A DNA stretch of 64,000 nucleotides from contig JANRKF010000010.1 in NCBI GenBank assembly GCA_033763575.1, positions 13,376 through 77,375 on the forward strand, read 5' to 3'. Both the position numbers and the translations under genes were made by a program. Shown here piece by piece: positions 18,226-50,636 of the stretch; positions within the stretch are counted from its first letter, which is position 1; each line of letters starts with the position of its first letter. This stretch comes from Alphaproteobacteria bacterium (lineage in GTDB: Bacteria; Pseudomonadota; Alphaproteobacteria; Rickettsiales; SXRF01). The notes under the pieces are model-generated. The model did no database searches and was not told the origin of the DNA. It saw only the letters and a list, made by a program, of their open reading frames with translations.

Positions 18226-18349
18226 TAAATTCGCTAGGCCGATGGCAAAAAGCAATGTTTTTCGAGAACTGCGAGGGAGTGTACGGCTTTGTACATGACC
18301 GAGCAGCAGCGCAGAAAAACGAAGCGTTTGCCCGGCCTAGTAGAATTTA
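18226..18349. repeat. RPE-like palindromic element, copy 1
   Basis: Arms taaattcgctaggccg / cggcctagtagaattta; core gagaactgcga..gtgtac..gtacatga..gagc..agcgcagaaaa; overlaps trxA TAA. Confidence 0.8.
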
Positions 18350-18667
18350 AGCGGCGGAATCAATCCACTCGATAAGTTTCGATTTCGGCAGCGAACCGAC
18401 CTTGGTCGACACGGCCTGGCCGCCCTTGAACAGGATGAGCGTTGGGATGCCGCGCACGCCGTATTTTTGCGGGGTACCGGGGTTCTTATCGATATTGACC
18501 TTAGCGACGATGAGTTTGCCTTCCTTCTCCTTGGCTATTTCTTCCAGCACGGGGCCAATCTGGCGGCACGGACCGCACCATTCCGCCCAGAAATCCACCA
18601 GCACCAGCGTGTCGGATTTCAGCACTTTGGCTTCGAATTCGTTGTCGTCAACTTGCAAACAAGACAT
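18347..18667 (-). CDS. trxA: thioredoxin
   Basis: [18 protein letters not shown]. Confidence 0.97.
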
Positions 18668-18692
18668 AATTTTTTCCTTTATCAGTTATACG

Positions 18693-21600
18693 TTATATGT
18701 AGGCACTTGGGAGCGTTTCGTCAAGTAGGTCAAGGCGGGCTTTTGTCGTCCAGAGCAGCGCGGTGCGGATGCGGCGGGATGGGTAAATTTTAGCCAGCAC
18801 GGCGGCGTAAAGCGCCATCTGCTGGGCATAAGCGAGCGGCGGCGCGGCGGGCGGGGCGGCGCTGGACTTATAATCGACTACCCACACCTCTTTTTCCATG
18901 ACGACGAGGCGGTCGACCTGGCCGAGCACGGCGACCGGCGCGCCCTGCCACTCCACCACGCCGGAAATGGGCACTTCCGCCATGGAACCCGGCCCGAAAA
19001 GCGGTGCAAATTCTGTTGTGTCCATCACCCGCAGCACCTCGTCCGCCAACGCTTCGGCATCTAATTCCGGGGCATGGTTCTGGGCAATGGTGATGGCGAC
19101 TTCGCGACGTTTTTCCGCCTCAACCGACGGCAGGTATTGCAGCATACGGTGAATGGCTATGCCACGCGTAACCAGTCGTGGATCGGCCAGTGGCGAGGAA
19201 GCGGCGGGCGATACCAGTGTCAAATGCGAAGGCGAAATCGGTTTTTGCGGCGCTTCTTCCGGTACGGTATGGCCTAATAATACAAGCGGCAACGGCGTGG
19301 CGGCAGGCGTTTCTTCTGTTTTCGCAATCGCCGGAAACTGGCCGAATGCAAGGCGTTCATTCGATGATTTTGTGCCGAGAGCTGTGAAAGCCCTCTCCGC
19401 TAATTGGTACCACGAACCGTCCTGCACGCCGGTTTTTTTGTTTTTCCCATTGAAGGCGCCGCAAACGACGAGCACGTCCTCCGCCCGGGTGAGCGCGACA
19501 TAGAGCAGGCGGTGCGATTCCTCCACCTGCAATTCTTTTTCGCGGGCTTTCGCCTCCTGCACCGCCGCACTCGCCTGATCGGCAGCGATGGTGGCAAGCG
19601 GCACCCCCTCCTGCCATTGCAGCCGCTCCGATGTGTTTGGCAGCGAGGTGCTGTCGGCAACAATGACGATTTTGGCCTGCAGGCCTTTGGCGGCGTGCAC
19701 CGTAATGATGCGCAGGCGGCCGGAAGCATGCTCCATATCGCGCTTGATCTCGCTTTCACCCGCCTGCACCCAGGCGAGAAACCCCTGCATCGACGGCGCG
19801 CCGGACTGCTCGTAAAGCAACGTTTGCTCTAAAAATACGTCGAGCACTTCGTGCGTTTCTTCGCCCATGCGCCCGGCAAACGCCCGCCGGAACCCACGGG
19901 CATCGAGCAGCTCGGCAAAGAGCGCATAGGGCGGAATAAAATCCACCTTCGCCCGGAATTCAGCGAGCAGCGCATGCGCGGGGCTACCGGAAATCGCCTG
20001 CCACAGCGAGGTTTTTCGATCATGGCAGAGCGTGAACAATTCGTCTTCGCCGATATTAAACAGCGGTGATTTGAGCAACCCGGCGAGCGTGAGGTCATCT
20101 TCGGGAAACAACAATATCTGCGCGAAGGCAAGCAAATCCTGCACCGCGATGTTATCGAGCAGGTTCATGCGGTCAACGCCTGCCACCGGGATATTCCGGC
20201 GCTTGAGCGCCCGTGATAATTGCGGCACGAAGCGGGTGCGGCGGCGCACCAGCACCATGATATCGCCGGGCGAAACGCCCTGCTTCATCCACTCCTCCAC
20301 CTGTACTGCAATCTGCCGCGCCAGCACATTTTCAGCACTTAAATGGCGCTCTTCATCGGCAAGCGCCAGCGGCCACAACTCGCAATAGCCCTTCGCCTCA
20401 CTGCGTTTGGCCTGATGCGAAACCGTGGCATCCCTTGCGCTTAGGCCTTTTCGTGCCACCTCATTCGCAAACACCGCATCCACCAGCTGCAATATTTCGG
20501 GTGCGGAACGATAGGAATGGGTGAGCGCCACCACCTCGCCTGCCATATGCGCGTCCTGCAATTTACGCATGAAATAATCGCGGTTGGTGGCAAGCCCCGC
20601 CGGGTCGGCGCCCTGGAAACGGAAGATCGATTGCTTCTCGTCGCCGACCACGAACAGCGAGCGGTCGGCTTCGCTGCGGCCAATGCCTGCAAAGAATTCA
20701 CCGGTGATGGCGCGCACGATATCCCATTGTTCGGGGCTGGTATCCTGCGCTTCGTCGACCAGCACATGGTCGATGCCGCCATCGAGCTTATACATCACCC
20801 ACGCACCGACATCGCTCTGCGACAACAGGCGGAGCGCCGCCAGAATCTGGTCATCGAAATCCATCAGGCTGTGGCGTTCCTTGAGCGCGTCATAATGCGC
20901 GATCAGGGTCGCGCCGATGGTGAGTAGCCGGTCGGTGAGCCTTGCATCCGCCAGGGCATTCAGCGCTGCGGCCATGCGTTCGGCGCAGGCCTGCTCCTCC
21001 GAGAGTAGTTCCTCCTCGGCGCTGGAAAGCGTGTTTTTGGTGAATAGCTGCTTGCGCGGGCGATGATCCACCAGCATCCATGCCGCATAGCTTTCCCACG
21101 CCGCCTCATCCCCGCCGGCGGCCCAGCCGCTCAACGCCCCGGCGGTGGCGGTATTGGTTTTTCCACCAGCGGCGGCAAGTGTTTCCGCTATTTTCCTGAG
21201 CGCGGCGATATGCGCGTCGCCACGCCGCACATGCTTTTCCGCCAGCGCTGCGAACGACTCGTCCTCACCCACACCGAGCGTCTTGTAAATGGCTTTGATG
21301 GCGAGCGCTGTGCCATGATGCGCGTCGATAAAACGCGATAATTTTCGTTTCTGCGCCACCATTTCCGCAAGCAAATCGAGCAGCGAATATTCGCCGAGTT
21401 GCTGCACCAGGTCATGCAGCGCATCTCCATAGTCGCTGCCTTTGGCTCCGGCAAAAAGCTGCATCCGCGCCTCTTTAAGCAGCGCGTGGCGGGTGGCGTC
21501 ATCCATCACCGACAAATGCATCCCCACCCCTGCCTCCAGCGGGAACCGTGCAAGCAGCGACTGGCAAAACCCGTGAATCGTTTGCAGCCGGAGCCCCACC

Positions 21601-49074: not shown

Positions 49075-49147
49075 CATGGCTGGTGGCGCTTGCCCTGCCC
49101 GGCTCATTGCTGTATAAGCCACGCCCATAAACTATTTGGGCTTTTTC

Positions 49148-50482
49148 ATGTTCTCCTCCCTTTCATCCAAGCTCACCAGCATTTTCGGCAATTTACGCAA
49201 GCGCGGTGTGCTCACCGAAGCCGATATTGATGCGGTGGCCCGCGAAGTGCGGATCGCGCTGCTGGAAGCCGATGTCGCGCTGCCGGTGGTCAAAGATTTC
49301 ATTTCCTCACTCAAGGAAAAGGCGGTGGGCGCGAATATCGTGGCCAGCATCAATCCGTCACAGATGGTCATCAAGCTGGTAAACGACCACCTGGCCGAGT
49401 TGCTGGGCAGCGAGCATCAGGCCTTGAATCTCGCCGCCAGCCCGCCGGTCGCGATCATGATGGTCGGGTTGCAGGGCTCCGGTAAAACCACAAGCACCGG
49501 CAAGCTCGCGCTGCGGCTCAAGAATAAACAAAACAAGAAAGTGCTGGTCGCCTCGCTCGATATTTACCGCCCGGCGGCGCAGGAGCAGCTGGCGCAGGTG
49601 GCGAAGCAGGCGGGCATTGATGCACTGCCGATAATCACGGGGCAAAAACCCAAAGAAATCACCGAACGCGCACTGAAGGAAGCCAAGCTCGGCGGGTATG
49701 ACGTGCTGCTGCTCGACACCGCGGGGCGGCTGCATATCGACGCGGAGCTGATGGGCGAACTCAAGGCCGTCAAATCCCTCGCCAACCCCATTGAAACCTT
49801 GCTGGTGGCGGATTCGCTCACCGGGCAGGATGCGGTGACCATTGCCAAAAGCTTCCATGAACAGGTGGGCATCACCGGCATCATCCTGACGCGTGTCGAT
49901 GGCGACGGGCGCGGCGGTGCTGCGCTTTCGATGCGGGCGGTGACCGGCCAGCCGATCAAATTCATGGGCATGGGCGAGAAGCTCGATGCGCTGGAGGAGT
50001 TCCATCCGGCGCGGATTGCCGGGCGTATTCTCGACATGGGCGACATCGTGTCGCTGGTGGAGCGTGCGCAGGAATCGGTGTCCGAGGCGGAGGCCGAGGC
50101 GATGGCCAGGCGGATGATGGGCGGGCAGTTCGATTTCAACGACCTGCTCGACCAGATGCGCAAGATGAAGAAAATGGGCGGCGTCGGCAGTATGATGAAC
50201 ATGCTGCCCGGCATGGGCAAGCTCAAGGAGCAGCTGGCGGGGGCGAATATCGACGAGCGTATGATAGCGCGGCAGGAAGCGATCATCCTTTCCATGACCC
50301 CGCGGGAGCGGCAATTTCCCAAGCTTATTAACGGTTCACGGCGGATTCGCATTGCGGTGGGGTCGGGCACCAGCGTGCAGGAGGTGAATAAAATCCTTAA
50401 ACAACAACTGCAGATGACCGATATGATGAAGAAACTCAAGAAGTTAGGGCCGAAAGGCCTGATGGGCCTGCTGCCACGCTGA
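49148..50482 (+). CDS. ffh: signal recognition particle protein
   Basis: GLQGSGKTT, DTAGR, DGDGRGGAALS, GRILDMGD, Met-rich M domain. Confidence 0.98.
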   Translation: MFSSLSSKLTSIFGNLRKRGVLTEADIDAVAREVRIALLEADVALPVVKDFISSLKEKAVGANIVASINPSQMVIKLVNDHLAELLGSEHQALNLAASPPVAIMMVGLQGSGKTTSTGKLALRLKNKQNKKVLVASLDIYRPAAQEQLAQVAKQAGIDALPIITGQKPKEITERALKEAKLGGYDVLLLDTAGRLHIDAELMGELKAVKSLANPIETLLVADSLTGQDAVTIAKSFHEQVGITGIILTRVDGDGRGGAALSMRAVTGQPIKFMGMGEKLDALEEFHPARIAGRILDMGDIVSLVERAQESVSEAEAEAMARRMMGGQFDFNDLLDQMRKMKKMGGVGSMMNMLPGMGKLKEQLAGANIDERMIARQEAIILSMTPRERQFPKLINGSRRIRIAVGSGTSVQEVNKILKQQLQMTDMMKKLKKLGPKGLMGLLPR

Positions 50483-50490
50483 CCCATCGG

Positions 50491-50636
50491 GCAAAACTGC
50501 TCGGAATCTTGCTGTGGCACAGCGAAAACCGCCTTTTTCGAGAACTGCGAGTGAGCGTACAACTAGTACGTAATCGAGCAGGAGCGCAGAAAATGCGGTT
50601 TGCAGCCAGCCAGAGTAAGATTATGGGCGGTTTTGT
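50491..50636. repeat. RPE-like palindromic element, copy 5
   Basis: Arms gcaaaactgctcggaatcttgct / agtaagattatgggcggttttg; core gagaactgcgagtgagcgtac..gtacg..gagc..agcgcagaaaa. Confidence 0.78.

Follow-up and report, generated by a model that had tools for sequence, protein, structure and literature searches.

Gene-boundary repeats in a GC-rich Rickettsiales-like genome: homologues of the palindromic element RPE-1 with features of IS630-type MITEs

The window, meaning the whole 64,000-nt stretch of DNA analysed here, contains five copies of a palindromic repeat, all placed on the + strand by a covariance model (R1) that was built from nine copies in the same genome; a search of the whole window with R1 gave no sixth copy (Table 1). 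Four of the starts given in a preliminary description of this DNA agree with the model (29221 as against 29220), whereas the fifth, 50491, falls in one of the degenerate outer arms (GGGCAAAAC.GC and GCGGTTTTG) of a copy that is a decayed long form and whose core starts only at 50504. The contacts with a TAA (two copies), a TAG and an ATG that had been described are all present, and the ~8 nt said to separate the last copy from a TGA is true of its outer arm, its core starting further on. Orthologous sites in the same genus are often empty. In G002, a genome of the same genus, the site of copy 1 holds no element and the genes on either side overlap, and copy 3 is missing from its site as well; the site of copy 2 holds a type A copy in G002 and no element in G001, where the spacer is 6 nt and the protein three residues longer; and no element precedes ubiX in G001, G002 or G003.

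Table 1. Repeat copies in the window and the features next to them (flanking genes assigned by Pfam; z against dinucleotide shuffles)
Copy	Position	Strand	Form	R1 score (bits)	Fold as single-stranded DNA	Adjacent features
1	18226-18349	+	type A, short form	77.5	-30.2 kcal/mol, z -5.7	end includes TTA 18347-18349, the TAA stop of minus-strand thioredoxin gene 18347-18667; 5' end upstream of, and 15 nt from, ATG (18210) of minus-strand Gln-synt_C gene
2	22482-22606	+	type B subfamily (GATGGAG...GTGTAC..GTACATGATCGAGCCGAG), short form	34.9	z -4.3	TTA 22604-22606, the TAA stop of minus-strand short-chain dehydrogenase gene 22604-23362; DUF1465 gene stop (22455-22457) 24 nt upstream
3	23394-23511	+	type A, short form	72.1	z -5.2	adjoins CTA 23512-23514 (TAG stop) of minus-strand ORF 23512-23763; 5' end 32 nt upstream of dehydrogenase gene ATG (23362)
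4	29220-29341	+	type A, short form	73.3	z -6.8	3' end meets ATG (29341) of ubiX (29341-29913; product Pfam Flavoprotein, 3.3e-47)
5	50488-50640, core 50504-50623	+	decayed long form	96.4 (core)	z -4.75	TGA stop at 50480-50482 before the copy; core starts 21 nt after TGA

The elements are 120-150 bases long, and the window copies are rod-like hairpins of ~122 nt that fold to between -26.6 and -30.2 kcal/mol as single-stranded DNA (z = -4.3 to -6.8) and to between -50 and -57 kcal/mol as RNA. The genome (1.94 Mb) holds 37-38 R1 matches, or ~50 copies by iterated nhmmer, and both the size of the family and its fold are far above the chance level. Three features are conserved in the single hairpin formed by the 122-nt core: a basal motif, in which the pairing of 5' TCGCT with 3' AGTAG includes a bulged A and a G.U pair; an internal loop that is asymmetric, with GAGAAC facing GAAGCGCAG; and an apical part, GYGTAC-loop-GTACRTGAGC. 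The last two bear out the shared core that had been described, except that the copy at 22482 belongs to a variant subtype with neither GAGAAC nor AGCGCA. Between the conserved features the stems vary by compensating changes, while the loops and the motif with the G.U pair and bulged A stay fixed. An alignment of 49 distinct copies, drawn from 15 genomes or more, has 91.4% of its cells paired and double changes in 37 of the 44 pairs; compensated cells number 451, as against 119 in shuffles, and slid controls are 26-41% paired. The structure-preserving covariation proposed earlier is therefore strong, and the self-complementary arms called private to each window copy do differ in sequence while keeping their complementarity. 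Covariation of paralogous copies can stem from selection on a mobile element rather than from a host function. Long, complete forms carry 12-27 extra paired bases per side with TA at both boundaries, four of the window copies have no recognisable outer arms, and the same core occurs joined to different outer arms. Rfam 15, searched with the whole window at the gathering threshold, gave two tRNAs only, and copy 1 had no Rfam match at E up to 1.

RPEs have been known from Rickettsia since 2000 as selfish palindromes inserted in frame into genes, RPE-1 reportedly having been described by Ogata et al. in 2000 and 2002. Membership of the family has been limited to the genus Rickettsia (WPE being the counterpart in Wolbachia), its origin has been placed vaguely "before Rickettsiaceae", and we know of no transposase for it. 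The resemblance to RPE-1 put forward in the preliminary description holds up in an independent comparison by covariance model: R1 matches full-length and on the same strand at loci of TIGR01045, the NCBIfam protein model of RPE1. The two coincide in coordinates and strand for 25 of 33 R1 matches in Tisiphia, for 4 of 21 in Rickettsia and in a Rickettsiales MAG (G053), as exemplified by R1 at 1197574-1197695 against TIGR01045 at 1197563-1197706 (G042, contig C1) and by 90094-90218 against 90083-90229 (G041, contig C6). Together with the best pairwise identity, 79% between one copy in our genome (C11:5133) and a Tisiphia RPE-1, this coincidence of loci supports the homology of the window repeats to RPE-1 at the level of sequence. 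The 12-nt outer arm of canonical RPE-1, TA/GACCTCTTTC (a slash marks the element boundary), is found again as TAGGCCTCTTTCG in the relative G014. Common to both are the length class (122-nt core plus 12-nt arms, ~146 nt), the TA-bounded ends, the rod-like hairpin and the motif order AACTCGCT ... CGCAGAACCGCAGCGTAC - loop - GTACGTGAGGATTCGAG ... CAGCAGAAGTAGAGTT.

The differences concern lifestyle and host. Whereas RPE-1 sits in frame inside genes, the copies in our genome sit between genes and not inside them; TIGR01045, the RPE1 peptide, has no match in this genome, and six-frame translations of the window copies have none in NCBIfam. Open reading frames that span copies look spurious, and one that was scanned against Pfam had no match. 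Our host has 56% G+C, with elements GC-rich to match, and most of its copies are subtypes (type A with GAGAAC/GAAGCGCAG, and type B) without description from Rickettsia. In Tisiphia, the strands of RPE-1 are mixed along the chromosome with no visible replication polarity, whereas the copies studied here are polar. Rather than being restricted to the genus Rickettsia, the element gave R1 matches in 27 of 41 genomes related to ours. It occurs in several families of the order, with E values as low as 1e-41 outside our genome's own family, and MAGs that bear the label "Rickettsiales bacterium" have it too. Carriers hold between 1 and 36 copies, and 14 of the 41 relatives are without the element, as are the Rhodospirillaceae and Insolitispirillum controls and one Wolbachia genome (0 matches each).

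Signs of recent mobility come from subfamilies that are 96-100% identical in our genome, where the assembly breaks at these copies, and from equally young subfamilies (96-100%) in G001, G008 and G013. Every young subfamily, as well as canonical RPE-1, is bounded by TA...TA, and the adjacent bases differ: TA/GATAG..CTATC/TA in our genome, TA/GGCACTG..CAGTGCC/TA in G001, TA/TAGTTATT..AATAACTA/TA in G008 and TA/GACCTC..GAGGTC/TA in canonical RPE-1. No pair of empty and filled sites close enough to demonstrate a TA duplication was found. For the G008 subfamily only, and via one degraded gene in one genome, the terminal repeat matches an end of the IS630 family: the outer arm TATAGTTATT..TTTACCATTATAC matches ..TATTATGGTAAATGACTATA at the right end of a DDE_3 gene that is present in G008 in degraded form and whose relatives elsewhere end ..TAAATGGAATGACTATA; IS630 copies in G028 start TATAGT. 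Mobilisation of the element in trans by an IS630-type transposase is likely on this sequence evidence. DDE_3 (PF13358) has 0 matches in our genome, a negative weakened by the incompleteness of the MAG (92%), and MAGs often lose insertion sequences; it was found in only 4 of the 41 relatives and not in G001 despite the young copies there, and none of the IS630 copies contains the conserved core.

The reading that we favour, with a probability of roughly 0.7, takes the five repeats for old copies of a foldback element that is non-coding, is homologous to RPE-1 and behaves as an IS630-type MITE. Its outer arms would be the terminal inverted repeats that bound insertion sequences of the IS630 family (Tc1/mariner type), and a DDE transposase acting in trans would cut and paste it into TA dinucleotides with duplication of the TA. 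The fixed position of the better-folding strand relative to replication would mean that either insertion or survival depends on which strand can extrude the hairpin at the fork. Because they have no recognisable outer arms, the short-form window copies may never have been IS630-type MITEs. With such MITEs the family has in common that it is non-coding, 120-160 bp long and equipped with terminal inverted repeats, that all young subfamilies have TA at either side and that, in one, the repeat matches the end of a DDE_3 gene in the same genome. Unlike them, the element folds over its entire length into a single hairpin, whose stems covary and whose core is conserved throughout an order; different arms occur on the same core, orientation is replication-polar, and most genomes with the element lack the cognate transposase.

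Placement at gene boundaries is polar as well, the 3' end being flush with TAA or TAG stops in 24 of 44 cases and the 5' end in 2 of 28; one third of the copies lie immediately 3' of stop codons. At 18347 and 22604 the element terminus itself supplies the stop. Since both termini read TAA, a copy landing in or just after a gene end would supply a stop codon and so be tolerated, and such tolerance, together with short AT-poor spacers, may account for the gene-boundary placement. What had been called stop- and start-codon targeting thus refers to real boundaries, but is better put as TA-bounded ends that read TAA in both directions, plus a polarity by which the 3' end only is flush. A symmetric TA-insertion model leaves this asymmetry between the ends unpredicted.

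Orientation follows replication and is independent of the direction of neighbouring genes. The strand that folds better, here called sense, lies on the C-rich (lagging-strand) side and on the leading-strand template. In our genome, where 37 copies are spread over 12 contigs, no contig is of mixed orientation, and the rule holds for 19 of the 20 copies at which the absolute skew is at least 0.02; on a 1.43-Mb contig of G007 all ten copies fit, and orientation switches where the skew switches. The coupling is seen in at least five genomes, and 94 of 118 copies follow the replication direction when genomes are pooled (p = 6e-11). The sense strand is the better folder in 33 of 38 copies (G.U 53 vs A.C 22), gaining ~6 kcal/mol as RNA and being the more stable as DNA in four of the five window copies. 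A strong strand bias is not known for IS630 elements (PMC3971601), and a near-symmetric MITE should insert either way, so that the orientation rule needs an extra cause.

Survival is one candidate for that cause, and it is compatible with the IS630-MITE model as a sub-hypothesis of it. Insertion would occur either way, and copies with the more stable hairpin strand on the lagging-strand template would quickly be deleted by slippage or SbcCD-type cleavage; an effect of hairpins in promoting deletion was reportedly described by Trinh and Sinden in 1991. The position of the more stable strand on the leading-strand template agrees with such a process, as do young copies that violate the rule (all three in G013 and one of our own, C17/C8) and a young hairpin in our genome that has lost exactly its apex (C11:34811-34925). 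However, 19 of 22 young copies in G008, 93-100% identical, already follow the rule, and the stability gap between the strands is modest, so that we regard survival as a possible but rather doubtful explanation.

The same young G008 copies favour a bias at insertion, which would follow if the element transposed at the fork in the form of a folded single strand. In this scheme, related to IS200/IS605 and REP/RAYT, an HUH-type or other enzyme would insert the element beside a short target (T-A-R) in one strand only, and this alone would yield both the orientation rule and the polar flush ends. Coupling of orientation to replication is indeed a property of IS608 and ISDra2 (PMC5027513, PMC3333891), and hairpin repeats with a GTAG-containing foot are common to REP/BIME-RAYT, IS200/IS605 and our family, whose elements form hairpins over their whole length, keep certain mismatches conserved and fold better in the sense strand. 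We nevertheless consider this scheme improbable: Y1_Tnp (PF01797) has 0 matches in our genome and occurs in only 4 of the 41 relatives, three of them without the element; the elements are 3-4 times longer than REPs, with symmetric TA...TA ends and long inverted repeats unlike those of IS200/IS605; IS608 uses the lagging-strand template, whereas here the strand that folds better lies on that of the leading strand; and the young G013 copies and one of our own break the rule. Y1/RAYT transposases are excluded, PF01797 being absent from our genome while control genomes did give matches.

It is also unlikely that host selection keeps the core as a domesticated signal, in the form of structured RNA or of DNA (a terminator, an mRNA 3'-end protector after stops, or a polar protein-binding site for replication or segregation): conserved loops and basal motif with covarying stems across an order, the frequent position after stop codons and a polarity like that of Chi or KOPS-type sequences would suit it, but the patchy distribution, the empty orthologous sites, the disregard for adjacent gene direction, and the young bursts and assembly breaks point to selfish spread, no Rfam family matched, and the covariation may reflect selection on the element itself.

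Compared by description, ERIC and Correia (CREE) elements of enterobacteria and Neisseria are also imperfect palindromes of ~120-150 bp at gene boundaries, co-transcribed with adjacent genes and, for Correia, with a TA duplication (general background and the review PMC10969869); replication polarity is reported for neither, nor is stem covariation as extensive as this around conserved loops. What is new is that an order of uncultured, Rickettsiales-like bacteria with larger genomes carries clear homologues of RPE-1 that are GC-rich and lie between genes; we found no mention of RPEs in the papers that we searched on the basal families. This pushes the origin of the RPE family back in time, and makes the in-gene lifestyle of RPEs look derived, from reduced genomes with little intergenic space. 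The TA-bounded ends, the IS630-type terminal repeats and the exclusion of Y1 transposases provide testable leads on mechanism. Annotators of such MAGs need a model of the element, because it breaks assemblies and supplies stop codons. For a MITE, it is unusual that orientation should be coupled almost absolutely to replication direction, and this offers a system for studying how hairpin DNA interacts with the fork. Going further, we tentatively suggest that the RPE-1 core may be an ancient, order-wide hairpin module carried on IS630-type repeats, with insertion or survival coupled to the fork. If so, the movement of RPEs would have its first concrete explanation, a DDE transposase that inserts a foldback substrate at TA, and the presence of copies at genes and, in Rickettsia, inside them would be explained as well; the polar flush 3' end at gene boundaries would reflect directionality in a step of insertion at the fork, and in uncultured Rickettsiales the family would report naturally on the direction of replication.

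The five elements listed in the preliminary description, lying at 18226, 22482, 23394, 29220 and 50504, are exactly those that a covariance model recovers in the window, all on the + strand. Read site by site, they are ~120–125 nt long and share a common centre, TTTTT-GAGAAC-CGN-AGCGCAGCGTAC-loop-GTACGTGAGCA-NCGG-AAGCGCAG-AAAA, surrounded by outer parts that are specific to each copy yet self-complementary. The private arms proposed earlier are indeed present, and each copy folds as one long rod. The proposed core is likewise common to the copies, with the qualification that copy 22482 is a variant, here called type B (type A carries GAGAAC). 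The majority of copies start with TAAAYTCGCT and finish with AGTAGARTTTA. The host genome (GCA_033763575.1; 1.94 Mb in 35 contigs, 55.6% G+C; the window corresponds to C10:13376-77375) contains 38 copies according to the covariance model and yields ~50 matches in iterated nhmmer searches; Rfam returned no match for the elements. The same genome also contains a more distant subfamily (see table), in which the apical GTGTAC..GTACATGAGCA is all that is retained; its arms (GCTTTCGTCCGCCACTAGGCAGCC...) are very unlike those of the other copies, and the family models score it weakly.

Coordinates of elements and derivatives outside the window (C, contig of the named genome; L, locus)
Feature	Genome	Position	Remark
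Young copy	host	C35:136032-136180	
Young copies	host	C17/C8 and C32/C11 contig junctions	
Young copy	host	C11:34811-34925	apex deleted
Distant subfamily	host	C11:12499-12640	
Distant subfamily	host	C11:15426-15567	
Distant subfamily	host	C24:93667-93808	
Distant subfamily	host	C16:1898-2038	
Element before tRNA gene	host	C10:11133-11252	3' end ~13 nt from first base of the tRNA gene
Element before tRNA gene	G003	C2:26293-26413	3' end 0 nt from tRNA gene +1
Element before tRNA gene	G003	C2:83866-83987	3' end 0 nt from tRNA gene +1
Mini-derivative (~80 nt)	G008	L196 3259-3340	two terminal repeats only
Short hairpin repeat	G041	L097 1501-1611	Rickettsia endosymbiont

The window copies have predicted folding energies of -26.6 to -30.2 kcal/mol as single-stranded DNA (z = -4.3 to -6.8 relative to dinucleotide shuffles) and -50 to -57 kcal/mol as RNA. 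Aligning the full set of copies with MAFFT gave a structurally inconsistent result, which was dropped in favor of a seed of nine host sequences, whose structure was mapped by hand from one minimum-energy fold and from which the covariance model R1 was built. In this seed, 92% of cells are paired, compared to 35–45% when the partners are slid, and 27 of the 45 pairs show changes on both sides. The R1 alignment comprises 49 distinct copies, drawn from 15 genomes or more; in these paralogues, fitted to the model, 91.4% of cells are paired (26–41% in slid controls), double changes occur in 37 of 44 pairs, and 451 cells are compensated versus 119 in shuffles, in agreement with the structure-preserving covariation suggested from the five copies. 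Little or no variation is seen in four features, namely the GTAC/GTAC of the apex, two positions occupied by a G.U pair, a basal CGCU/AGU-A-G with the A bulged, and the unpaired GAGAAC and GAAGCGCAG. In 33 of 38 host copies, the strand after which the element is named (the 'sense' strand) forms a more stable fold than the complementary strand, by 6 kcal/mol on average (p = 2e-6). The variable pairs contain 53 G.U versus 22 A.C; the two inherited G.U positions account for most of the raw difference.

The resemblance to the Rickettsia palindromic element RPE-1 proposed earlier is upheld by searches with a nucleotide and a protein model. R1 has 21 matches in the Rickettsia endosymbiont of Urophora cardui, 33 in Candidatus Tisiphia, 3 in Ca. 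Megaera, and 18 in 'Rickettsiales bacterium ZH-3nov15-86', while a six-frame search with TIGR01045, the 48-residue NCBIfam protein model of the RPE1 domain, marks 39 Tisiphia places, 9 in the Rickettsia endosymbiont, and 12 in the ZH genome. The R1 matches coincide with TIGR01045 places over their full length and on the same strand in 25 of 33 cases for Tisiphia and in 4 of 21 for the Rickettsia endosymbiont, and residue-level alignments bring out the shared motifs. Furthermore, the host copy at C11:5133 and a TIGR01045-positive Tisiphia element have 79% identity across 122 nt, and the 12-nt outer arms of canonical RPE-1 (TA-GACCTCTTTC ... GAAAGAGGTC-TA) have a counterpart in a copy from genome G014 (TAGGCCTCTTTCG ... 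AAAAGAGGCCA). Since model coincidence, sequence identity, and arm motifs agree, homology to RPE-1 is well supported by sequence comparison. The remaining 17 Rickettsia matches are shorter (102–111 nt) and negative for the RPE1 peptide, but have the same apical core. In the Rickettsia endosymbiont G041 and at Tisiphia locus L098, the short hairpin repeats found by R1 measure 102–116 nt, are peptide-negative and share the apex GCAGCGTA-loop-TACGTGAG with the R1 family; such repeats probably form a separate RPE family with a relationship to RPE-1.

Among 41 related genomes, 27 carry the element according to R1, with 1–36 copies each and E-values down to 1e-41; among the carriers are further genera and families within the GTDB order of the host. 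R1 gave no matches in a Wolbachia genome, a Rhodospirillaceae MAG, or Insolitispirillum. For the UbiX protein encoded in the window, the closest relatives (70% identity) are from MAGs that bear the label 'Rickettsiales bacterium', and Rhodospirillales come next.

The host elements differ from Rickettsia RPE-1. RPE-1 encodes the RPE1 peptide, whereas TIGR01045 finds no place in six frames of the host genome. NCBIfam likewise returned no RPE family match for six-frame translations of the window copies, or for those of the best-scoring Rickettsia and Tisiphia matches that are not RPE1; peptide-based detection fails for the GC-rich copies. All host copies are intergenic, unlike RPE-1. In-frame insertion in this genome was rejected, as the ORFs that cross copies are Arg/His-rich and antisense-looking, and the one copy-spanning ORF scanned against Pfam had no match. 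The genes flanking the window copies are ordinary, encoding thioredoxin, a Gln-synt_C protein, a DUF1465 protein, a short-chain dehydrogenase, and UbiX. A 363-aa ORF at 28109-29200, between a hemB-like region and ubiX, has no Pfam match, and the orthologous sites of G001, G002, and G003 contain nothing that corresponds to it.

Both termini read TAA outward, and a copy can therefore replace a stop codon, as it does at 18347 and 22604, the two TAA overlaps noted previously. The abutment of one copy on an ATG also holds, the 3' end adjoining the start of ubiX. Counting ORFs of at least 100 codons that read into an element end, with stops at -5 to +2 regarded as flush, the polarity is strong: 24 of the 44 ORFs entering the sense-3' end have flush stops, 17 being TAA, against 2 of 28 for the 5' end, where the typical spacing is 19–27 nt (Fisher p = 3.6e-5). 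It is thus consistently the same, 3', end that lies flush. As the 22482 site shows when compared between genomes, the 5' spacing is in part the displaced tail of a truncated gene plus the old spacer: this site holds type B in the host, type A in G002, and no element in G001, where only 6 nt separate the two convergent genes and the dehydrogenase has three additional residues. The orthologous G002 sites of copies 18226 and 23394 also lack the element. At the first of these (L123), the thioredoxin stop overlaps the Gln-synt_C start (TTGA); in the window, the element and, in the region 18195-18225, a 15-nt leader (GGAG and a new ATG) now lie between the two genes. The insertion has thus split a translationally coupled pair. 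Genes of same-genus genomes are only 68–80% identical and their intergenic DNA is too diverged for target duplications to be read, so sites were scored for presence or absence only; low-depth DNA contigs from the one drinking-water and the one biofilm metagenome in which this genome is represented gave no usable joints or empty sites.

Recent movement is evident from young subfamilies. The host subfamily is 148 nt long with 96–99% identity, and its copies break the assembly; separate bursts in G001, G008, and G013 have 93–100% identity. Adjacent host contigs have overlaps of exactly 141 nt (the assembly k-mer), which allows chains such as C32(rc)-C11-C16-C17-C8 to be rebuilt, several of the breaks being due to elements. 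In G008, young copies also pile up locally, with two in tandem 25 nt apart at L196 and five within 17 kb at L200.

The orientation of the elements is related to replication and independent of the direction of neighbouring genes. The 37 host copies lie on 12 contigs, and within each contig they all point the same way. For 28 of the 37, the sense strand is on the C-rich strand; among the 20 copies with |skew| of 0.02 or more, this holds for 19. On a 1.43-Mb contig of G007, from a different genus, the skew is positive from 75 kb to ~1.0 Mb and negative thereafter; the six copies at 311–603 kb are all on the - strand and the four at 1150–1387 kb all on the + strand. The rule is followed by 30 of 40 copies in G003, G013, and G014 and by 26 of 31 in G001 and G008, which brings the pooled count to 94 of 118 (p = 6e-11). 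Host genes favor the G-rich strand, which supports its assignment as the leading strand, for which GC skew and gene-strand bias were the sole criteria; the better-folding strand therefore lies on the leading-strand template. The bias may arise at insertion, as 19 of 22 young G008 copies already conform. It may also arise through loss of copies in the opposite orientation, which is consistent with three young G013 copies and one host copy that disobey the rule, and with one host copy lacking its apex. A mutational origin, through strand-biased C-to-T changes producing G.T pairs, was rejected, because it predicts leading-strand enrichment of G.T and the opposite is seen.

The only terminal feature common to the young subfamilies is a TA on both sides, seen in the host (TA-GATAG..CTATC-TA), G001 (TA-GGCACTG..CAGTGCC-TA), G008 (TA-TAGTTATT..AATAACTA-TA), and RPE-1 itself (TA-GACCTC..GAGGTC-TA). 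This is the signature that would be expected from IS630/Tc1-mariner-type insertion. IS630 transposases (DDE_3) are rare, occurring in 4 of 41 relatives, but a DDE_3 gene in degraded form (Pfam 3e-14) is carried by G008, the genome whose young burst is the largest. The right end of this gene reads ..TATTATGGTAAATGACTATA-TA immediately behind the stop codon and corresponds to the terminal repeat GTATAATGGTAAAGTGGAATAACTATA of the G008 subfamily. Relatives of this transposase in other Alphaproteobacteria, which include intact ones, end in ..TAAATGGAATGACTATA; IS630 copies in G028 start with TATAGT. The link lies in this terminal-repeat match and not in a 38-nt identity beside the transposase remnant, which was rejected as an IS end since it belongs to a separate truncated element copy. 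Metagenome contigs contained no exact word match to the interior of the G008 IS, and R1 run without filters did not detect the RPE core within the IS630 loci of other genomes. We infer, from one genome, that the long forms (core plus outer arms) are probably MITEs, in which IS630-type terminal repeats surround an RPE core, and that they are moved in trans; IS630-type mobilisation is thus a lead. Y1 transposases (PF01797) were excluded, being absent from the host genome; of the 41 relatives, just four have them, and three of these four are element-free. Integron attC sites, considered because the elements have a uniform orientation and conserve structure rather than sequence, were rejected on reading the window, where the flanks are housekeeping genes in both orientations and no R''/R' core occurs bar one chance GTTAGGC.

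The literature on RPEs concerns Rickettsia, together with WPE in Wolbachia (PMC3767692, PMC1779305, PMC10969869), and the papers searched on the basal Rickettsiales families mention neither RPEs nor palindromic elements. The elements described here are a real repeat family and constitute a new variant of RPE-1, which is intergenic, GC-rich, polar with respect to replication, and order-wide in its distribution.
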